From Amphiscolops sp. MND2022 (Eukaryota), in contig OZ076409.1 of assembly GCA_964187785.1 (NCBI GenBank), positions 9,054,001-9,118,000 on the forward strand: a stretch of 64,000 bases of DNA, in the 5' to 3' direction. A model generated the notes under the pieces. That model ran no database searches. It saw only the letters and a list, made by a program, of their open reading frames with translations, and was not told the origin of the DNA. This document shows, one piece after another, positions 43,861 to 64,000 of the stretch (the stretch's first letter is position 1; the number at the start of each line of letters is the position of its first letter). Made by a program: the position numbers and the translations under genes.

Positions 43861-44390
43861 TCATATTTCTAGACTGTCCAAAAAAGCCAGTCTTGATTTA
43901 AAATCCAGATCATGCAACCCCAGATCTTCCTCAACTGTAAGTGGGTCCCCTTTCCTCCGGGCTACTTCCTGGTACCCTGGTTCATCCAACACTTGCCTGG
44001 ATTTCTTGGTATTTGTATGATGAAGACCCCACAATCGGTGATCGATCAACCAGGTTCTTCTGAAACACTCATAGGCTTCATCCACCTTCTCGAAAATCTC
44101 CAGATCCACTCCCAAGTTGTGATAGATTCTGGACATGAGGCTGGAAAACTCTCCGTAAGTGCTGAGACACAGTTTCCGGGCTTCTAGAAGAAGACGCATC
44201 TGTTCTCTGCGGTTTTTGCTGGACATTGCATACAGAATGAGACCCTGGGTCATCAATGCTTCAGCTCGAAGACCAGAAGCTTCAGACCCCATTTCGTCAC
44301 AGAGCTCCAGCGCTTTCTTTATAGCGTCAATTCCTTCCTGACCTTTTTTCTTCCTCCACGACCTTAAACATGCAAGGAAGTCACACCGTT
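43861..44390 (-). CDS. Probable terminal exon with TPR-like repeats (kinesin-light-chain/TPR_12 style); 5' boundary unresolved
   Basis: Open frame ERCDFLAC..GIDAIKKALELCDEMG..SRIYHNLGVDLE...DEAYECFRRTWLIDHRLWGLHHTNT to a stop at 43861. Strong acceptor gtttttcag at 44391. Confidence 0.7.
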
Positions 44391-44603
44391 CTGAAAAACT
44401 TCATTTCAGTACCCTATGTGTCCTCTGAGCAATTTTGTACGCTGAAAATGAAGTACTGAGTAACTTGAAACTATCGAATTTTCTGGATTTGTAATACCAA
44501 GTCTTTCTTCATTATGACATAGCCCTACTAATTGCATTGCAAAACCTTATTGTTTTCAAGAACCATACCAATGTTTTTCACGAATCAGTTTCATCAAAGC
44601 CAA

Positions 44604-45005
44604 ACAAGACGGGAACGTTGGCTAAAGTTGGAGCTATATCTAAGGCTCAAAAAGTGCAAAGTTTTCAAAATTGTAAAACGGAGAACCCTTTGGGCTTTTT
44701 GGGCCAGTTTGTTGCAAAATATAAAAAAAAACTCCTGAGAGGCATCCCTTTGGAGAAAACAATTTCGAAAAAAGTTGCACAGTGCCGAACAATATCAAAA
44801 GGACCATATAGTCTCGTCCGGTTTTGTATCTTACGTTAAAAATGGAGTAAATGAAAGGGGGCCGGCCCTTTGCACTGACTTAGATTCGTTTCCGGTTGCC
44901 TAGTAAAACGTGTCCACTACGCATACATTCTGTAGTCTAACCAAAAAAAGTATTCACTGTAATCGTCGGGCTTTCTTTCTTAAAAGAAAAGTCGCCGAAT
45001 AAAAT
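44604..45005 (-). repeat. HINE-like repeat in the intron of the TIR-RING-SAM-TPR gene
   Basis: aacaagacgggaacg..gctatatctaaggctcaaaa through to the cgtcgggc..gtcgccga hairpin. Confidence 0.65.
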
Positions 45006-45023
45006 GAGCATAACTCAACTAAC

Positions 45024-46227
45024 GTGTCGTTTTCGCACATGCTCTGAACAGCAAAGCATTTGATGATGTATAGTTTACATAGCTTTGGTTTCTCCAGATA
45101 CTTTGACCCGTTTTTGATGATTTCGTCACAGATTCCGGACAAATGGTTCCAACTAGCTGCATTTGCTTTGTTGATGAACATCACTTGCTTCAACTTGCGC
45201 TGAACAATGTAAGCTAGCATAACTTTTGTGTTGTAAGACCTAGCGTTGTCTTTCTCGAAACTTAGCGAAGCTATTGCAAAAGTTTCTGCGTCAGCAAAAT
45301 TGCCGGCATCACAAAGCACCATGGAAATCTTGCTGAGTTGCCTCGCTTTTATGTCGAAACTTTGTTTCGTATCATTTTGAAGAGTATCTCCCAACTTTTT
45401 GATAAGTTTTGTGACATCATTCAAACGGGTCTCATTGAGAGACGCCCAAAATTTGATAGAATCGGCAGGTGTGGTGCCGGTTGTCAAACTTCGTTCATCG
45501 TAGATGTCCTCTATCATTTGAAACTCGCCAACACTTGCTTCGGGTGTACTTATAGGTGCAGCTGAAACAGCGTCTTGTTGTTTTTTATGATCAGAGATGC
45601 TTTTGAGAACCCGTTTCCGGTGCCCGGTTTTCAAACCCATGCCTTTCAGATCCTCGTCGGTTAGCTCCAAAACCAGATCCAATGATTCGAAGCCTTCTTC
45701 AATTACTGCATCTTGGATGTCTTGAGGAATGTTGTACTTCTGAAACCAGTCCATCAACTCCTGGCTCGTTTTTTCGCTTTGACCTTGGTCCATGGGTGAG
45801 GAACCACTGGTACTTTGGGCAGACCCAGATGAACCCTGATCAGAGCTTCTACTTTTGGAAGCTTTTTCATTCAACTCCACCAATTGATTTATCTTGAAAT
45901 CGGTTTTCAAGTCCGAAGCTGATTCGGCACAAGGTATTCGGCATTTTGGACACGTGAACTCTTGCTGATTTCGATTGTTCTCTTTTTCCCAATCGATCAG
46001 GCAGTGCAGACAAAATGTGTGGTTACATGGCATAAGTCGAGGCTCCTTGAAGATTTCTTGACAGATTTCACATGTGGTGAAAGACCGTAAATTCGCAAGA
46101 GTGCTCAAATTATCTTGGCCTTTTTCCGCAACATCCAGTTTTTCGTTTGTCTTCTCTTCAGTTATGGATAGATATGATAATCTTGATAAAACTTTCTTAC
46201 ACGTATCTTCAAGTTCTTCTTTCGTGC
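45024..46227 (-). CDS. Internal exon: C3HC4 RING finger, SAM domain and helical/TPR-like region
   Basis: RING CEIC..PCNHTFCLHC..CPKC (~45940-46072). SAM LELTDEDLKGMGLKTGHRKRVLKSI (~45595-45670). Acceptor ttctattcttttcag (phase 1) at 46228 and donor GTTAGT at 45023. The 1.2-kb frame is intact amid decayed TEs. Confidence 0.88.
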
Positions 46228-46292
46228 CTGAAAAGAATAGAAATTGTTGCGGCGCAAGACAAGTAAGATGAACTTAAAGTAACAAATAATTA

Positions 46293-46363
46293 GACGATAT
46301 GGCAGAATGGTAAAAGAGTAGACTTTGAAGCCATTGATCGTAGGTTCGATTCCCGGGACCGGC
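46293..46363 (+). repeat. tRNA-Gln(TTG)-like pseudogene or SINE head
   Basis: A box TGGCAGAATGG (46300), ctTTGaa loop and B box GGTTCGATTCC (46343). The acceptor stem is poorly paired and T-runs lie downstream. Confidence 0.5.
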
Positions 46364-46494
46364 AAGTATTTGGGAAAAATTTTTGTTTTTTTCAAAATAT
46401 CTCTGATTTTTGCAAAAATAACCTTGAGAAAATGCGTAAAAAGGTCATGCTAGCTTTTGTTTGTCAGTGTTTATTGCTGTTTGAGGCTCTTTTA

Positions 46495-46857
46495 TGTTCC
46501 CCCCCCCCCCCACCACCAAAATTTTGGCAGTAAATTTTCTTAAAAACTTTAGACTAGCTTAATTAGAAGTAAAACCTTCTTTCCTAATGGGAAGTTAACG
46601 TCTATTGTTCACGCTTTTCGACTATAATTATGTTCGTATTAAGTGTTTATTGATGACTCAAAACAGGAAGCTGTTGATTTCTTCATCCAAAATGCGTGAC
46701 TACATATTGAAAAAGTGTGAAAAAAGTTTGTATCTGAATCCTAAACTGTCACACTAAAAATAAATGTAAATTTGAAGCTTTCTGGATTGTATTCAAGTCT
46801 TTTTGTTATACTGTTTTCACTTATTTTCCAGGAAAATTTTGGTGGTGGGGGGGAACA
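46495..46857. mobile_element. MITE with C-rich TIRs
   Basis: tgttcC(n)accaccaaaattt / aaattttggtggtG(n)aaca. Homologous copy at 58388-58853. Confidence 0.65.
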
Positions 46858-47713
46858 GAAAAATCCCTGTTTGATAATATTAGAATAATTATTGTTCATT
46901 TGTCTGCGAAATGCAAAAATTCTACAGTTATTCATACCCATTTTGCCTCGATTTGTCACTGTTTATGGCCGTATTTGAAAGCTGAAAGATATTATTCAAC
47001 TCCTTCTTTTCAAACGAAGTCTATAGAAACATTTGGCTTTTATAGAAATTATGCAATTATTGTAGTTAACTAGTGCCCAATCGTTATTGTTTTCAAAGTT
47101 TTGTTTTCTGAAGCCCTCCCTTGTTGAAACTGCTTGAACTTTTTGCATGTACTTTAATGTTGCCAGCAACTTTTATTATGATTTTCTAAAACTCTTACGG
47201 AAACTTTCATGCGAAAATTTGTCCCTGTTGTATTTAACTTTTATCAAGCTGCTTGAAAGATTCATCAAAATTTTGGCGGCAAGTTTAAGCCTTGATGTTT
47301 TGCAGGTTTCATTAAGCAGCAGTAATAATTTTGAAAGAAATAAGGCGCTATCAATTTTACCGCTAAATTAATGCAAAATAACTTCAGTCGCATAATAAAC
47401 TGCAAGTTAGCGTCATGTCTAGCGTGCTATTTGAGAAGCGGTGATCACATCAGATGAGTAGTTGAGAAAACAAAGTGTGAATACAAAGTGATCGTGTCGG
47501 TAATCTAGTGTAATTTATTTTCAAATTTAATTACAACAGTGGAAAATGCAGTGTAATTGTACATGATTTACCAAACGAAATTCACTGAATTTTCTAGGTT
47601 TTATAAAAAATTACCCTGCATGCATGCCTGCAGCATGTAAAAAGTTCCTAGGCGATAGCCAATACAAAGCCTAGAGATAAAAATTGAACCGCGGAGTTCA
47701 CGGAGAAGAAGGT

Positions 47714-48459
47714 TGTCGTGTTTCTCGCAGATCAAAACGCTTTTCTATAAAAGCTATTATTCACAAGGCTGCAAATATCAAAGCACATATCAAAGGGACA
47801 TCGACATCTAAAATAAAACATATGTCAATTACAGCAATATATGATAAAGGCATAAATCAGTATACACCACATCCCCCTTCCAAGAGTTCTCATCAATTGT
47901 CCCATCGGAGAGCGTGTAGTTTTTTGTGCTGGAACTCACGATGCGTCTTTTCCTGCGAGGTAAGTTGTTCGGAAGGGCAATAATACAGCATGGCTCACTA
48001 AGGAAGACTCAAAAGGGTCCGAGAGAACAATCCTAGCGAGTACTAGCCACATTGCTCCCTTTGCCTGTCCAACTACCGTTGCCTCTGATCTAGTGACGGC
48101 TAGATCAACTACAGATGGTACTACGACCACGGGAGTGGCGGAACAAACTTCGACATGCGTTACTAGTAGAGACTCGTCTTTGGTTGTAAAGTCTTCTACT
48201 ACTCCCGAGGTCCCGATTAGGAGGTCTGCACGAGTCAGGAAACCGAACCCAAGACTCAACGACTTCGTTTGCAAGTAACTATAAGAACTGTTGGAAGGGA
48301 ATGATGTGTGTACTGATTTATGCCTTTATTATTATTTACTGCATTTGACATATGTTCTATTTTAGATGTCGATGTCCCTTTGATATGTGCTTTGATATTT
48401 GCCGTCTTGTGGATAATAGCTTTCATAGAAAAGCGTTTTCATCTGCGAGAAACACGACA
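47714..48459. mobile_element. 746-bp element with ~180-bp inverted LTR-like arms and an integrase-like C-terminal tail
   Basis: TGTCGTG...CACGACA termini with perfect TSD aaggt (47709-47713 and 48460-48464). Arms at 47714-47893 and ~48281-48459. Internal PIRRSARVRKPNPRLNDFVCK*. Confidence 0.85.
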
Positions 48460-48809
48460 AAGGTGAATGCTGATGTTGTATCTACAGAACTAACGCTTAC
48501 GAATATAAAAGGCCAGATTGAATAAAGGATTCAATTTGTATCCTTTTTCAAAAAGCCGAGTTATTGACTAAAGCCTGAACGCTGGTTAAGTAACAACGCA
48601 ATTCTTGCAAGAATCTTGCAAAATCTGTGCATTTATTACATTCTTCGAAAGATCTTACAACTGAATTTATTCCTTGCAAGAATCCTAAAAAGAAATGTAA
48701 TCTTTGTAGGATATCTCAAGGAAACGTCTTACAGATAAACCAATCTTCAGTCTAACTGGCATAAAAGGAAAGTTCAAAAGAGTGTTCCCAAAGCACAGTT
48801 GAGTTAAAC

Positions 48810-49301
48810 GAATCTAGGAAAACTCGTTGGAAACAACTCGTCGAAAACAACTCGCCGAAAACAACTGGTCGAAAATACTAAGCGGAAAACTCGTCGAAAA
48901 GCAACTCGCCGAAAATTCTCCGGTGGAAAACTCGTCGCAAGAATAGAAAATAATCTCATGCAAATATAGTGCTAACTTTGTGATCATACCGTGTCATGAA
49001 GTTCTAAATTATTATGAAGTACTGAACTGTAAACCATAAAAATGAAACATTTCAAACAATTATTTAACTATAAAAGCTGTACTATGCGTAAAACTGAAAA
49101 TTTCACGCATCAATTAACGAAAATTTGTCTCTAATTAGTACTGGATAAGCCGTTTGGGTAATATGTAACTATTCGACGAGTTCTCACCTAATTATCACTC
49201 GACGAGTTAATTTTCGACCAGTTTTCCGCCTTTTAATTTCGACGAGTTGTTTTCGACGAGTTGCATTCAGCGAGTTGTTTTCAACGAGTTTTCCGCATAC
49301 C
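48810..49301. mobile_element. Mutator-like MITE
   Basis: Perfect 9-bp TSD gagttaaac (48801-48809 and 49302-49310). G-initiated TIRs with tandem aactcgtcgaaaa subrepeats. Confidence 0.8.
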
Positions 49302-49994
49302 GAGTTAAACATTCTTAAGTCTTTTGAGTTAGCCAAAAGAACCATAACTGAATCTCACCTTTGTTAAAATTGTCTGAGCTTTGTGCATGCCTTTTAATGT
49401 TGGCGGCAACCATTGTTAAGACTTTCGAAAAATTTTCGGAAACTTCAATGCGAAACTTTTCCCTGTTGTATTCGACTTTTATCAAGCTGCTTGAAAGATT
49501 GCTCAAAGTTTTGGCGGCAATTTCAAGCCCTTAGTGTTGGTAATGAAGTGGAATTCATTTTCAAATTTAATTTGCAGCAATGTAAAATGCAGTGTAATTT
49601 TATAAGATTTACCAATAGAATTTTACTGAATTTTACACTTCGTCGCAACTTGTAGTTGTGTGGTCTGTCATATTTATGCGTGTATTTTCACTGTTATTAG
49701 CTGTATTTACTAGCTCGAGAGCTAGTTTTAGCAATTTTAGACGTTACTTCAAAGCGTCGAAAATTATCTTTCGATCAAATTGTCTATTTCACAGTGCCTA
49801 AAAACCAAGGCGAACCTTTTCGGATGAGGGCGCAATATTTTCGAACAACCGCCTACTCATTAGTAATACACAATTTACTTCGGATACAACATCAAAAGTT
49901 AGCAATTGGCGTGCTGGGCGCTAAATCGGAGCGCTTTATTTCGATTCTCCGCTGCCCCCGTGGTAAAACGCAGTTTACTTCGAATAAAATATCA

Positions 49995-51610
49995 ACAAGC
50001 CGGGACCGGCCCAAGTCGGTGCCATATCCAAGACTCAAAAATAGCAGAAGGACATCAAAGTTTCAAAGTATTCTCTTCTACAGCACTAAAAAAATATATT
50101 TTGAAAAAGTCTCAAAACGCCGAAAAAAATTGAAAGGGGGACCCTTTGGGATTTTTCTATACCCAGTCTGTCGCAAAACCCAAAAATAAATTGAAGGGGG
50201 GACCCTTTGGGGATTTTTTTTCAGAAAAAAGTCTCGCAATGCCGAAAATAACTGAAAGGGGTGACCCTTTGGTCTCGTCCGTCATTGTATGTTATGCGGG
50301 AAACTTTTTGGTTCTATTCCCTGGGCCAACAGGTGAAATTTGAAATTTTGTAGAACTTTTGGTAGAACTATTTTGGTCAGTTCAGGTGGTCATGAAAAAC
50401 AAGACGAGAACGTCTAAAGTCGGCTCCATATCTAAGGCTCAAAAAGCGCAAAACAATTTTTCGGAAAAAAACTTGAAATTTTTGAAAAAAAATTTTCTTT
50501 CGAAAAAAGTCGCATAGTGCCGAAAAATGTAAAAGGGGGACCCTTCTGGATTTATTAACATACATTCCGTTGCAAAATATCAAAAACCTCGAAGGGGGGA
50601 CCCTTTGGGGACATTGAAAAATTTTCGAAAAAAAGTCGCACAGTGCCGAAAAAAATCCAAAGGGGGACCCTTTAGGCACGTCCGGTTTTGTGGGTTTCCT
50701 TGAAAAAGTAAATAAAAAGTAAAAAACCAAAGGGGGACCCTTTGGAATAACTTAGATGCGTTTCCGGGGTATTCGTTTAGTTGAAGATACTGAACGTTAA
50801 CGTTCGTCGCTTCGAGTCTGTCTCAAATAAAAAAAACGAGTGACTGTAATAGTCGGGCTCTTTTCTTAAGAAAAGCGCCGACTAAGAACACTGACGAAAA
50901 ATCATGACTATAGTCGACTCTTTTCTCTAGAAAAGCGCCGACTAAAAAATTCGAGTATAGAGCAATATAGTTTGGATATGACGACATACAAAGTCAGATA
51001 TAACGCAATATGTTGTTCATATCAAAAAAGACAATCAATATAGTTTAGTTCGCTAGGCCAAAAGGAACGTTTCAAGATTTTGTACAACTTTCGAAGAAAT
51101 ATTTTGGTCAGTTCGTGTGGATTGAAAAAAAACGTCCAAAAGCCACTGTAATAGTTGCGCTTTCAGTCGGGAAGAAGAAAAAGCGCCCAACTATTACAGT
51201 GGCTTGTTTTTTTTCTTTTTTTTTCGCCAGACCACAGACCTCATTATGTATGTACCACTTTTTGTGCACTGTGCACTTTTACCAGAAGTACTTAGAGTAC
51301 TTGATTTTGAACGCATCCAAAGCCTCTAACGTGAAATACAAAACCATTGCAAAGCAGAAAGGTACCCCTTTTCAATTTTTCGTCACTATTAGACTTTCCC
51401 CAAAAAAGTTGTGAGACTTTTTTTCGAAAATTTTTCAGTGTCTTCAAAGGCCCCCTTTCAATTTTTTGATATTTTGCAACAAACTGGAATTTCAAAAAAT
51501 CCAACGGATCTCCATTTTAGTATTTTAAAAACTTTGCGCTTTTTGAGCTTGAGATATAGCGGCGACTTTAGACGTCCCCGCCTTGTTATTCCTTAAAAGC
51601 GCCGACTAAA
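49995..51610. repeat. Cluster of tandem/nested HINE-like copies in both orientations
   Basis: aacaag..agtcgg..atatctaaggctc starts at ~49995 and ~50398, with an inverted copy ending ~51588. Many gggggaccctt repeats and agtcg..cgact hairpins at 50850-50945. Confidence 0.65.
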
Positions 51611-51639
51611 AAGTGTTTGGTGATTTGGGTGGAACTAAC

Positions 51640-52024
51640 CAGACGTAACAGACAAGCACTGGAAAATGGAAGTGAATAAATAAGCTCGTGCTCCTTCTTT
51701 GGTGTTGTGTTTTATCCACTCGAAGCTTCCGAACACAATGGGCAGCATTTCTGGCTTAGCCCTCTGAGTATAACACCTGAAGGCACAGTTAAACTCAGCC
51801 ACACATTCCATACTGTTTGTCCACGCCTCGTCTAACAAGATTATCATAACTTTGCAGTTGATGGCGTTCAGAAGGATCTCATCCCGGAAAGCAGCGCCTG
51901 GACTCATTTCCAGACAGATGAACGTGCTAACTCCGGCTTCTTCCAGGAAATCGTGCAAGAGCTTGGCTGTGTCTTTCGTAGTCCGACAACAGTGGCTGAT
52001 GAAAACGTCACAAGGTGACGTCAT
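51640..52024 (-). CDS. First coding exon: TIR domain (TIR_2/SARM1-like)
   Basis: DVFISHC box 1, LHDFLEEAGVSTF, EILLNAINCKVMIILLDEAWTNSMECVAEF (conserved Glu codon at 51794-51796) and MLPIVF. ATG context caaaATG. Phase-1 donor G|GTTAGT at 51639. Confidence 0.88.
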
Positions 52025-52049
52025 TTTGGGTCACGTGACGATTCAGGCC

Positions 52050-52980
52050 GAATCTAGGAAAACTCGTCGAATAGGGAAAAGGAGGTCTAGCTGCTTCTAA
52101 TTTATTTGCTTCTAATCGAAATCTCTTTTTACTTCTAATTAAATTTCTTCAGCTGCTATGTAGTTGCTTCTAATTTATCTACATGTAAGCTAGCTGCTTC
52201 TAAAAATGAATACAGCACAAGCGACGAAATAATTACGATAATGTAATCAGCTATGCTCACATACCCCTAGTGCCCTAAATGCAGGAGCGAAGCGAAGCGG
52301 AGCGACGTGCCATATGGCCATGTCTCAATGTTGCTGCTTGGCGAAGGGAGCGAAGCGACCGAGCCATACAACAAATATGCTAACCTCTTCAAATTGTAAC
52401 CTGAAAATAATCGCTGTTATGGAATTCCTTCGACGCTTTGAATAGCTTTAATTTTTTCGACGTTTTGAATATTCTACGGTTTGAATAGTCACCGTTAGAA
52501 TCGTCTAAATTTGGAAGCTAGTAGTTTTAGGAGCAACTAGTTTTAGAAGCAGCTAGATTTAGATGTAACTCGTCATTTCAAAATTAGAAGCAACTGGGCA
52601 GACCCGTCGAAAAGCAACTCGCCAAAAATTGGCTGGCGGAAACTTGTCGCAACAACAGAAAATAATCTCAGACAAATATACCGGTTTGTGATCGTGCTGT
52701 TATTAAGTTCCAACTTATTATGAAGCATTACACTGTAAACTAAAAAAAGTGAAATATTTCAAGCAAATATATAACTGAAAAGCTATATTATGCGTAAAAC
52801 TGAAAATTTCACGCATCAATTAAGGAAAATTAATAAATAATTAGCACTGGATAATCCCTGTTTGTAATCTTAAAATTATTCGACGAGTTTGCAGTCAATT
52901 TTTATTCGACGAGTTAATTTTCGACCAGTTTTCCGCCTTTCAATTTCGACGAGTTGTTTTCGACGAGTTTTCCGCATACT
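52050..52980. mobile_element. Second Mutator-like MITE copy with a nested MITE (~52082-52605)
   Basis: Same termini as 48810-49301, with TSD attcaggcc/attcaagtc (7/9). The inner element has ggtctagctgcttctaattt / aaattagaagcaactgggcagacc ends. Confidence 0.75.
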
Positions 52981-60175: not shown

Positions 60176-61179
60176 AAATTGTCATATTCTACCGCTAGTA
60201 ATGACATCGGAAAAAGGTTGAGCATATGTACACGAAGGATTTTGTTTATCAGAATACTTCCTCTAAACTATTTCCGGTTGAAAAATTACACTTGTCTAAA
60301 TTGATGGATTAAAATGATGGATTAGAAAAACCATCCCATCTCCGCTTAGAAGTGGAAATTGAGATGTAGAATACATTAGAAAGAACAAGACAGCAACAGA
60401 ACTCAGACTGTTAATTAGTCACTTTTCTATGTGGCCAATCTTCTCATTGTTGTCGAATCACCATCACTGGTCCTGTCAGACAGGAAATCACAGGGTCATG
60501 ACAATTCATGTAGGGTTCCTTCTGGATGTTACCATCATTCGTGTGGTTGTTGACTTCAGTTCCACCGTTCTGTTGTAGGTAACTATTGACTGGCAGAAAT
60601 AGGAATTGATTTCAGACCATCGAGCATCCTTTTCAAAGTTTCTGATAAAGCTCTAGTTGTTCGTTTCACTCTTCCTTTCCAGAGCTTAACTAAGAAAAGC
60701 TAGTGGACCAGGTCATCTATTTACCACCCCCCTAGGTACGCCTTGTTGGGAATATCCCTCAACACGAAAGCATTTTGTTCTTGAATAAAACTATTTCACT
60801 AATAAGAGAATATTATATGAATGTAAATACTGAGAGGATTGTTTGGACACTTCAGGCAAAAAAACTTACCATAATTTTTTGATATTATTGTCCAAAATAG
60901 CAGAAATTTACGTTTGTAACAACCTAAAATTGTATATAAAGGCCCTGTAGAGGACACACAAACTCACTTAAACTAATTAGTCTGCTTGTACTATTTATAC
61001 TTACTAATTTAAAGTACCTGCCCGCCACATAAGTGCGGATGAACTGAATACATTCAGTGATAGAAAAAGAAGAGACAAGAATCAGTTGAATTTTAGTAAA
61101 CAATATCTTTCTCTTTACAAGTCAGCTATAGATACAACATGGCGCAGTCAGAGTAACCTTCACAAGTTACTGAAGATTA

Positions 61180-62538
61180 ATGGACGACAGCACAAATACC
61201 TCTCCAAGGAATGGAGGATTCAACGGGACGGTGACGGAAACGCACCAACGCGAAGAACCGCCACCAAACGATACAATGAACAGAACCACAGAACGGACTT
61301 GCACACAGAACCTCACCATTCCAACATTGGACAAGCAAGACTATACCAGTGCAAACATGTGGTGGCGGAAATTCGTACAGTACATAAAAATGACGAAAGA
61401 CTTAGATCTATCAACAATGACAAACAGCAAAGAGATACTGCCACAATACCGTGATCAACTGGAAACAGAGATAAAGGACATATTTCTGTGGGCAATCGGA
61501 CAAAACGCTATCACGGAAATGACCAAAACGGTTAGAGAAAGAGAACCAAGCTCATTGCCGTTACACAAACTGTACTCATTATTTCGGTTACATTTCACTC
61601 CAGAACGGAATGTCCACCACAGTAGAGCCGATTTTTTCGAATTGAAACGAGAAGAAGGAGAGTCAGCGGCAGATGTCTGGAAACGGATACTGGCAATCGA
61701 AAAAAATTGCGAATTTGAAACAATAACCGCGGCAGAACTACTAGCATCAAAGTTCATCTCGGTAATCGGCAAATCAACAGGCGACTACGACCTCAAGAAA
61801 AAAATCAGAAAAAGTGACATGTCAGTAGAAGCAATAACCGAAGCACTACATGAACATATGTACGAAAAATTAAACGACTCACCAGAAACAGAAGAGGAGA
61901 AGAAAATTAGATACCTCAACAAAAGGAAAGCAAAAAGCTATAAAGAACACACGGATAAACCAAGCAAATTCAAAAAAATGGACTGCAATAGATGCGGAGC
62001 TCCGAACTGGTCGAGACATCACGAATGCCCAGCCAGAGGAAAGAAATGTACAAAATGCGACAAGATCGGCCATTACGCAAAATATTGCAGAACAAATAAA
62101 AAGATAAACCGCATACAAGAACACGGAACCAGTAGTGCGGAAGAAGACGACTGGTCACCGAAAACAATCCTTTGCATTAATCAAAAGATCCATTCAACGC
62201 GTCAATTGAATACAGACGGTTCAGATTTCTTTACACTCACCGCATTGGTCAACAACCGACCAATCAAATTCATAATAGACAGCGGATCACCGGTAACTCT
62301 AATACCGAAATCACTATTTAATAGAATAACACCGTTGAAACCGCTGAAAACGGAATACCGAGACGTAAACGACAACAGAATTAAATTTGAAGGAAAAACA
62401 ACTGCAACAGTAGAAATAAACGAAAAGCGAAATGATCTGGAAATCCTGATAACTACGAAGGAAACCAACCGTTTGTTAGGCTTGGACTGGATGAAAAAAC
62501 TGGGAATAACGCTGGAGACCGGTAGAACCGATCCATAA
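61180..62538 (+). CDS. gag: Gag plus aspartic protease (452 aa)
   Basis: Zinc knuckles CNRCGAPNWSRHHEC and CTKCDKIGHYAKYC, protease FIIDSGS and LLGLDW. The stop at 62536 is in frame with the downstream pol. Confidence 0.88.
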   Translation: MDDSTNTSPRNGGFNGTVTETHQREEPPPNDTMNRTTERTCTQNLTIPTLDKQDYTSANMWWRKFVQYIKMTKDLDLSTMTNSKEILPQYRDQLETEIKDIFLWAIGQNAITEMTKTVREREPSSLPLHKLYSLFRLHFTPERNVHHSRADFFELKREEGESAADVWKRILAIEKNCEFETITAAELLASKFISVIGKSTGDYDLKKKIRKSDMSVEAITEALHEHMYEKLNDSPETEEEKKIRYLNKRKAKSYKEHTDKPSKFKKMDCNRCGAPNWSRHHECPARGKKCTKCDKIGHYAKYCRTNKKINRIQEHGTSSAEEDDWSPKTILCINQKIHSTRQLNTDGSDFFTLTALVNNRPIKFIIDSGSPVTLIPKSLFNRITPLKPLKTEYRDVNDNRIKFEGKTTATVEINEKRNDLEILITTKETNRLLGLDWMKKLGITLETGRTDP

Positions 62539-64000
62539 ATAAACCGTATCGTCGAAGATCCGGATATTACCACTCTCAAAAGGAAATTCAAGAAACTCTT
62601 TCATGAAAACCATACGGTGAAAGGACTAGAAGTGGAAATACAATTAAAAGAAGACGCAAGGCTAATACAACAAAAAGGAAGGCCAATACCGATTCACTTA
62701 CAACAATCGGTCGAAAAAGAAATTACCAAACTAATGAAACAAGGCCCCATCGAAAAAGCAAACAACATAGACGAAAACTGTTTCGTCAGCCCGGCAGTAA
62801 TAACCGTAAAGAAAGACAAATCGGTAAAAATCGCCCTAGACTCGAGAAAATTGAACGAGATCACGATCAAAAGAAAAACACAAATGCCCAACATGGAGGA
62901 ATTAATTTCCAGGATCTCCAGAAAAATTGCGGACGGACCGGCAGACGAAATCTGGACTTCGAAACTCGACCTAGACTACGCATACGGTCAATTATCATTG
63001 TCCAGAGAAGCCCGGAACCTGTGCATAATTGCCGTAACTGGTGGAAACTTTACCGGTTACTACCGTTTCCTGAAAGGGTTTTACGGGTTAGCGGACATAC
63101 CGACAATATTCCAAGAAAAAATCGACCAGACTTTAGAAAACAAACACCCAGCATGGCTAGACGATATAATAGTCGTAACCAAAGGTTCAAAAGAACAACA
63201 CAAAAAGGAACTAATAGATGTTCTAACCCGGCTAGAAAACGCTGGATACAAACTCAGCGAAAACAAATCCGAATTTTTCAAAACGGAGATTGAATGGTTT
63301 GGCCATAAAATTAACCAGAATGGAATCAGACCATTGCAAGACATATTAATGGCAATAAAAGAATTGAAAAGATCCAACAACGAAAAAGAACTCAAATCTT
63401 TTTTCGGAGCCATTCAATATTTATCCAAATATATCCACAATTTATCAGCACAAACAGATATCTTGAGACAATTACTGAAGAAAGATTATGAATGGATATG
63501 GACTGAAGAACATACACAAGCATTTGAGAATCTCAAACAAAAGATCACGGAAATACCGTGTTTGGCTCATTATAATTCATACTACCCAAACGTGATAACA
63601 ACCAATGCCAGTACAAAAGGCCTCGGTGCGACTCTATGGCAAGAACAACCCGACGGAAAACTGAAACCAATCGGCTTCGCAAGCCGATTCTTATCCGACA
63701 CCGAAAAAAAATACGCCATTAATGAACTCGAATTACTGGCCGTCGTTTGGGGGTTAGAACATTTTTGACTGTACATCTACGGTAAACCAATCAAGTTACT
63801 TACGGATCACCATGCATTAGAACCGCTCATTAAACGCAACTGGTCCAATAAAACATACAGCGCGCGGTTGACAAGGTGGTGGCTGGACGGATTAGCACAC
63901 TTTACGATCAACGTAAACCATATCGCAGGCAAACATTTAGCACTCACGGATTACTTGAGTAAAAATCCGACAGCGGATACGTCATCAACAAGATCCTACC
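62539..64000 (+). pseudogene. pol: pol: RT and RNase H
   Basis: SKLDLDYAYGQ, GFYGL, WLDDII. RNase H TNAS (catalytic D to N) and YAINELELLAVVWGLEHF, then a premature TGA at 63766. Confidence 0.88.

Follow-up and report, generated by a model that had tools for sequence, protein, structure and literature searches.

What is very probably a single three-exon gene lies on the minus strand of a 64-kb window of Amphiscolops sp. MND2022 DNA (contig OZ076409.1, positions 9,054,001 to 9,118,000; the window is this whole stretch of 64,000 nucleotides, and coordinates are positions within it unless a contig is named). The gene is made up of three minus-strand open reading frames (ORFs) from the ORF list, at 51635-52030 (131 aa), 44954-46273 (439 aa), and 43861-44400 (179 aa), in which Pfam finds a TIR domain, a RING and a SAM domain, and a TPR-like tail, respectively. 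An initial annotation of this DNA had listed the three ORFs on one strand and joined them into one gene with the order TIR, C3HC4 RING, SAM, and TPR tail; their coordinates and strand are correct, and the order is borne out by Pfam, by paralogues in the same genome, and by a RefSeq protein model. The joined coding sequence (385+1204+502 = 2091 nt) translates into 696 aa and contains no internal stop, in agreement with the intact frames described at the outset. On balance, we favor the interpretation that this intact gene encodes a cytosolic protein composed of a TIR domain, a TRIM-type RING, a SAM domain, and a TPR superhelix, and that the protein would act as a clustered E3 ubiquitin ligase. 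The features of the gene are collected in Table 1.

Table 1. Features of the TIR-RING-SAM-TPR gene, in window coordinates.
Feature	Position	Strand	Description
Exon 1	51640..52024	-	385 nt; ATG (52024-52022), 128 codons and one base; encodes TIR strand A to strand E
Glu73 codon GAA	51806..51808	-	At the pocket Trp position of NAD-cleaving TIRs
Glu77 codon GAG	51794..51796	-	Candidate catalytic glutamate
Intron 1	46228..51639	-	5412 nt, GT..AG, phase 1; dense with interspersed and tandem repeats
Exon 2	45024..46227	-	1204 nt; short helix, RING, linker, SAM, first half of the TPR superhelix
C3HC4 RING	45941..46072	-	Exon-2 translation residues 52-95; all eight zinc ligands present and canonically spaced
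SAM	45587..45772	-	SAM_2 35.1 bits, 1.5e-8; SAM_1 31.8 bits, 1.8e-7
Helical region	45024..45505	-	Family-specific; N-terminal half of the TPR-like superhelix
Intron 2	44363..45023	-	661 nt, phase 2; both splice sites checked against two paralogues
Exon 3	43861..44362	-	502 nt including the stop (43861-43863); C-terminal half of the TPR superhelix

The first exon opens at an ATG with an in-frame stop two codons upstream, and the TIR exons of the paralogues begin at the same place. It ends in phase 1 at the donor TCT G/GTTAGT (a slash marks the exon boundary), and the second exon begins, likewise in phase 1, at the acceptor ttttcag/GC ACG, giving GGC as the junction codon. The TIR-RING junction proposed earlier, 51640/46227, thus has its splice sites placed exactly and joins the two ORFs in frame. 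Because similarity to every relative halts at the donor GAC AC/GTTAGT, we set the end of exon 2 at 45024, in phase 2. Exon 3 was started at 44362 (acceptor tgtttaag/G), the site homologous to that of both paralogues, whose third exons are 46-47% identical to it; judged by the frame, it may instead start at a weaker in-frame acceptor at 44398, which would give a protein of 708 aa. The strongest-looking acceptor in this region, tttttcag/A at 44390, was rejected because it is out of phase and would lead to a stop two codons on. Each of the three TIR-bearing copies of the gene has an in-frame stop at most 1-3 codons past the exon-1 donor (51638-51635 in the window, and the equivalent positions of loci L026 and L028), and retention of the intron would therefore yield a TIR-only protein of ~125-130 aa.

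To compare the gene with its relatives, we searched the 1.07-Gb assembly of the same species, in which loci are named by contig (C2 and so on). That the DNA is eukaryotic is also apparent from its base composition, introns, and transposon content. A compact paralogue at C2:61.697-61.702 Mb carries TIR (61697281), RING-SAM (61700277), and TPR (61701689) exons on one strand within less than 5 kb. A second copy has its RING-SAM and TPR exons at C2 62.025-62.027 Mb and a TIR exon upstream of them. All copies agree in their intron phases (1 for the first, 2 for the second) and in where the junctions fall. The two C2 copies are 73, 59, and 69% identical to each other in the TIR, RING-SAM, and TPR exons, and the window gene is ~44, 38, and 47% identical to either of them, so the three exons diverge in parallel. 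In nine exon comparisons, the proportion of nonsynonymous differences (pN, 0.16-0.42) was far below that of synonymous differences (pS, 0.79-0.98); we give these proportions instead of dN/dS because synonymous sites are saturated. At the sequence level, this demonstrates purifying selection on all three exons. The paralogue count and selection analysis suggested in the initial annotation have therefore yielded two full three-exon paralogues and a pN far below pS in every exon comparison. Furthermore, no Met precedes the first RING Cys in the exon-2 ORF, and an intact RING consequently needs an upstream coding exon.

The same layout is found outside this genome in a RefSeq model from Symsagittifera roscoffensis, XP_063714813.1 (P0153, 707 aa), in which Pfam places TIR_2 at residues 7-112, RING at 173-214, SAM at 274-331, and TPR_12 at 582-642. 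A second model, XP_063728200.1 (P0158, 600 aa), has a partial TIR lacking the first 59 TIR residues, followed by RING, SAM, and TPR. Both were found via cluster membership, as they share 90% clusters with ORF-level matches. They belong to the same family as the window protein, with the same module order and junction positions, and have in common with it the TIR helix C motif and the block YDDR..G..P.D..KFW; the window protein shows collinear homology to XP_063714813.1 over all four modules. The sequences themselves differ considerably, the window protein being 41% identical to P0153 in the TIR, 28% in exon 2, and 45% in exon 3. Among other relatives, TIR and RING-SAM ORFs fall in pairs on contigs of equal size (P0169/P0162, 38772; P0170/P0003, 461036; P0167/P0155, 408900), and with the window TIR P0169 shares 65% and P0170 63% identity.

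We assessed the modules against the curated Pfam cut-offs (in bits: TIR_2 28, PF01582 21.3, zf-RING_UBOX 25.2, SAM_2 20.5, SAM_1 23, TPR_12 30.1). The RING matches zf-RING_UBOX at 42.4 bits (6.8e-11), and four RING models in all score above their cut-offs. Among solved structures, it comes closest to the RINGs of TRIM2 (1.5e-13), TRIM56, and TRIM3, and its CPKCR ending is invariant in the family, including the Arg after the last Cys. We take this Arg to occupy the 'linchpin' position of active RING E3s. The likeness to TRIM2, TRIM3, and TRIM56 covers the RING with its flanking helices (1.5e-13 to 1.2e-11) and the CPxCR ending. Unlike TRIM proteins, however, the window protein has no coiled-coil/PRY-SPRY or NHL module in Pfam, nor any zf-B_box match at E values up to 1; since the B-box is missing, it is not a TRIM.

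The SAM domain, which scores above both Pfam cut-offs, has its closest solved relatives in a Caskin-1/EphA6 fusion (1.9e-11) and in Caskin-1 alone (2.3e-11). In the AlphaFold model of P0153, this domain has a predicted local distance difference test (pLDDT) score of 96-98, and residues 372-707, mostly at pLDDT >90, stack as one continuous array of helices across the exon 2/3 junction. In the family alignment, conservation of the helical region runs onward from YDxR..G..P.D..KFW. A Foldseek search with the P0153 C-terminal domain returned 49 PDB matches at E ≤0.001, with the TPR domains of APPBP2, Pins/LGN, and KLC1 (E ~1e-5) and designed TPR proteins at the top; judging by their entry titles, the APPBP2 and Pins/LGN structures are complexes with a partner peptide or protein. 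In the ESM Atlas, the same domain matches TPR_12 clusters with template modeling (TM) scores of 0.59-0.66. On the model of this homologue, the C-terminal third of the window protein is a TPR superhelix of ~330 residues. Two observations weigh against these module assignments. TPR_12 scores 23 bits (9.3e-5) on window exon 3, below its cut-off, and the RING and TIR of the P0153 model have pLDDT values of 32-46 and ~33-73 (means of 10-residue blocks). The poor modeling of the RING is probably due to an untidy alignment of fragments, and, given the low confidence in its TIR and RING, we used the SAM and TPR parts of this model alone.

We next delimited the family. A profile of exon 2, run against 1.84 billion representative sequences, gave 15054 matches at E ≤0.001, of which 17 lie below 1e-30; those beyond the 17 strongest are generic RING proteins. 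None of the 20 matches scanned with Pfam (of 150 listed, most of them single-ORF calls from unannotated assemblies) carries a TIR, and a word-index search with the TIR yielded no longer TIR-fused protein among 90 candidates. One relative, P0011 (509 aa, on a 1944-bp contig), encodes RING, helical block, and TPR in a single frame and has neither a TIR nor a SAM match. The window's own genome holds 3 TIR exons of this family, as compared with 6 TPR-exon and ~7 RING-SAM matches, and two family loci at C2:14.2 Mb have no TIR nearby. Because TIR exons are the fewest, we regard RING-(SAM)-TPR as the constant core of the family and the TIR exon as optional. In this respect, the interpretation in the initial annotation does not hold as written: the family is not built around the TIR, which is an add-on carried by some copies. 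The matches counted above include one decayed, partial copy at C2:61619691-61626533 (L009, L023); it retains a fragment of the helical block, its TPR exon is interrupted by an in-frame TGA, and it is probably a pseudogene.

By sequence comparison, then, this is a small family whose sole named members come from an acoel, Symsagittifera roscoffensis, from which we would place the window in a related acoel. We found no paper describing a TIR-RING-SAM-TPR layout, although a comparative TIR survey and the supplementary domain tables of a preprint might list it; PMC8662601 mentions neither RING nor TPR. The earlier statement that no protein with this domain order has been characterized is upheld in that respect, but the layout itself is already present in RefSeq as 'uncharacterized protein' models. 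It is thus uncharacterized, and so far appears only in acoel predictions.

The TIR domain is matched by TIR_2 (PF13676; 44.5 bits, 2.5e-11) and, at 29 bits, by PF01582. The initial annotation had assigned it the S-x-WC-x-x-E motif of NAD+-cleaving TIRs. In the profile alignment, the family sequence S-K-E-C-L-S-E-F aligns with SDWCWDEL of Cat1 and SSWCLDEL of RPP1, which identifies the conserved Glu77 as the candidate catalytic residue and shows that the Trp of the motif is replaced by Glu73; the Glu of the claimed motif is therefore present, while its Trp is not. Glu77, Glu73, and the BB-loop residues Gly43 and Phe46 are each at least 90% conserved in an alignment of 11 family sequences, Gly43 aligns with the Gly of SARM1 EAGKF (G601), and the helix C motif W..S.EC..EFNCA is kept under strong constraint. 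The nearest solved chain by sequence is the SARM1 TIR (E 0.006), and the family profile places nearest Cat1, SARM1, 4lzp (a putative uncharacterized protein), RPP1, TcpB, 4c7m (a TIR-domain protein), and RUN1. A low-confidence model of the window TIR likewise ranks SARM1 (E 1.9e-3, 23-25% identity), RPV1/RUN1, and AbTir first; Foldseek returned no match for it at E ≤0.001, and this ranking is a lead only. TIRs of TLRs, IL-1R, and adaptors rank lower or are absent among the TIR matches.

Several points weigh against enzymatic activity of this domain. The pocket Trp (W638 in SARM1), four residues before the Glu, is replaced by Glu73, and W638A is among the SARM1 mutants whose kcat is 100-400 fold lower and whose Km is raised (PMC8266388). 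Of the Glu-bearing animal TIRs assayed in a 2026 preprint, 12/61 were active and 49/61 inactive (bioRxiv 10.64898/2026.04.20.719644). The model of the window TIR exon has a pLDDT of 58.8, with residues 91-129 below 50. Owing to the Trp-to-Glu73 replacement, the effect of W638A, and this base rate, we treat activity as possible only: that the TIR may cleave NAD+ through Glu77 is a tentative suggestion from the alignment, to which we give somewhat less than even weight.

Combining these modules, we propose the following mechanism. The protein would be a RING E3 ubiquitin ligase, its TPR groove would bind a peptide ligand or substrate, and self-association of its SAM and TIR domains would gather RINGs and TIRs. 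Such clustering would turn on ubiquitin transfer by bringing a pair of RINGs close together. It might also lead the TIR to cleave NAD+ through Glu77, in a composite active site, a step we consider plausible but are inclined to doubt; otherwise, the TIR would serve as a homotypic assembly surface only. Ligase activity, ligand binding, clustering, and NAD+ cleavage are all inferred activities. Acoels are described in a 2026 study as having no TLR, MyD88, or NF-kB (PMC12849515), and TIR signaling here would therefore have to run outside the Toll pathway; a whole-word search of its text gave no mention of SARM, RING, or SAM. A more far-reaching version, which we think unlikely, is that a TIR enzyme with Glu in place of Trp is hard-wired to an E3, such that ligand capture by the TPR leads to SAM/TIR clustering and then to an NAD+ product or NAD+ depletion with simultaneous ubiquitination, in a Toll-independent immune or cell-death pathway of animals that have lost TLR, MyD88, and NF-kB.

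The strongest alternative accepts the single gene and supposes that its TIR is catalytically dead and serves as a homotypic or heterotypic module that brings the E3 to other TIR proteins. At least 29 TIR_2 matches in the genome are possible partners, the pocket Trp is lost, most animal TIRs assayed in the preprint cited above are inactive, and the TIR-less paralogues point to a self-sufficient ligase core. However, Glu77 and the whole helix C motif are more constrained than a generic interface usually needs, and the domain is closer to enzymatic than to adaptor TIRs. The other TIRs of the same genome are, moreover, only remotely similar to the family TIR (19 bits at best). We regard a dead TIR as a serious contender, albeit one to which we give rather less than an even chance.

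Slightly behind it stands the model of the initial annotation taken literally, in which sensing by the TPR leads to SAM polymerization and thereby to activation of two genuine effectors, a Glu77-dependent TIR NADase and the RING E3, making the protein an executioner like SARM1. Glu77 stands where Cat1 and RPP1 have their catalytic Glu, the nearest solved TIRs all cleave NAD, and a SAM domain stands beside the TIR, as in SARM1. In addition, acoels have no adaptor partners for a scaffold TIR (PMC12849515), and the preprint indicates that Glu-bearing animal TIRs can be active. The Glu at the Trp position nevertheless speaks against this proposal, given the loss of SARM1 activity upon W638A, as do the 49/61 inactive TIRs, the single SAM domain in place of a tandem pair, and the poor TIR model, which leaves the pocket geometry without structural support. 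We therefore consider this reading rather unlikely as a whole.

We also weighed a split of the locus into two genes: a small one at 51635-52030 coding for the TIR alone, and another for RING-SAM-TPR whose first exon would lie, unrecognized, nearer 46227. Several observations weigh against a single gene in this respect: an in-frame TAG directly follows the exon-1 donor, the splice junctions are inferred from comparison rather than from transcripts, the exons are separated by a 5.4-kb intron filled with repeats, the TIR exon of the second paralogue lies 51 kb upstream of its RING-SAM exon, ORF callers list the pieces apart, and the TIR-less members (the C2:14.2 Mb copies and P0011) indicate that RING-SAM-TPR can work alone. 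On the other side, order, strand, and phase are kept in the paralogues, the three exons diverge in parallel, exon 2 offers no Met before the RING, and the RefSeq model joins the modules. The Pfam TIR match of P0153 also extends to residue 139, beyond the end of the TIR-exon equivalent at ~124 in the alignment with the window exon; this is suggestive of the last TIR helix being encoded by the start of exon 2, in a part of the model that has low confidence. Two separate genes are, on this evidence, quite improbable. A pseudogene, decaying or silent and duplicated from the chromosome-2 copies, is more improbable still: the locus sits among transposable elements, but all three frames are open with all splice signals intact, pN is far below pS, and relatives 63-65% identical (P0002, P0003, P0169, P0170) have open frames as well.

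The single TIR-RING-SAM-TPR gene that we favor bears comparison with several known systems. SARM1, an NAD+ hydrolase with the order ARM-SAM-SAM-TIR, shares with it the catalytic Glu, the BB-loop Gly and Phe, and the combination of SAM, TIR, and helical repeats. The order is reversed, however, and the window protein has one SAM, TPR rather than ARM repeats (Pfam finds no ARM match in it), an added RING, and Glu in place of W638; because of its order, RING, TPR repeats, and single SAM, the gene is not a SARM1 orthologue. CHIP/STUB1 is a TPR and U-box E3, and LRSAM1 is an LRR-SAM-RING E3. By analogy, both resemble the window protein in coupling a ligand-binding repeat domain to a RING-type ligase, LRSAM1 also in having a SAM domain; they differ from it in module order and in the subtypes of repeat and ligase, and neither has a TIR. 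The bacterial group 6 TIR-TPR proteins (PMC7075850) likewise have an N-terminal TIR and a C-terminal TPR array, but these prokaryotic proteins lack RING and SAM and fall into another TIR group with other box motifs. By analogy, then, the window protein may work most like a TPR-coupled RING ligase combined with a SARM1-style TIR/SAM module.

The gene bears on what animal TIRs do beyond Toll signaling. Acoels reportedly have no Toll pathway (PMC12849515), yet at least 29 TIR-coding matches occur in this genome. Some animal TIRs are reported to be enzymes (bioRxiv 10.64898/2026.04.20.719644). The gene offers a compact test case, with a TIR bearing a conserved Glu, a ubiquitin ligase, an oligomerization domain, and ligand-binding repeats in one protein, and the TIR-less paralogues of the same genome provide natural controls. 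If the TIR were active despite the Trp-to-Glu replacement, the definition of a TIR active site would widen, and NAD+-based signaling would be linked to ubiquitination in an animal. If it were inactive, the gene would represent one more lineage-specific shuffle of immune-type domains, as is common in invertebrate genomes.

The same genome contains a second, larger TIR family (L031-L039, at C9:4.56-4.70 Mb and on C13, C7, C4, and C3), made up of single-exon ORFs of ~400-670 aa. Each has a central TIR_2 match of 62-71 bits between long flanks with no Pfam match at E values up to 0.001, and four of the matches cluster on contig 9. In these TIRs as well, the motif with Trp is replaced, here by S-x-x-C-x-S-E. 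A reading of the flanks of the genome's other TIR ORFs as ARM- or SAM-like was dropped, since Pfam found TIR_2 alone.

Within intron 1, a ~400-bp interspersed repeat at ~50398-50800 gave 12,819 first-look candidates in its own genome. Of the scored genome matches, 39 are 93-97% identical to it, which marks the element as young and very abundant; it is possibly SINE-like (short interspersed nuclear element) or MITE-like (miniature inverted-repeat transposable element). The initial annotation had described the surrounding transposable elements as decayed; intron 1 is indeed rich in repeats, but this element is young. Inside the gene or shortly upstream of it are short tandem arrays at 48821-48937, 49237-49290, 50104-50272, and 52456-52563 (periods 14, 16, 40, and 62), which probably belong to repeat elements. 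The minus-strand stretch 46340-46365 (ggtcccgggaatcgaacc), a short way upstream of the exon-2 acceptor, resembles a tRNA 3' end; ARAGORN predicts no tRNA gene anywhere in the window, and the stretch is probably a fragment of a tRNA-derived SINE. On the plus strand, 61174-63768 holds two adjacent ORFs of the long terminal repeat (LTR)-retrotransposon type, open over 454 and 409 aa, in which Pfam identifies gag-aspartyl protease, reverse transcriptase, and RNase H domains.

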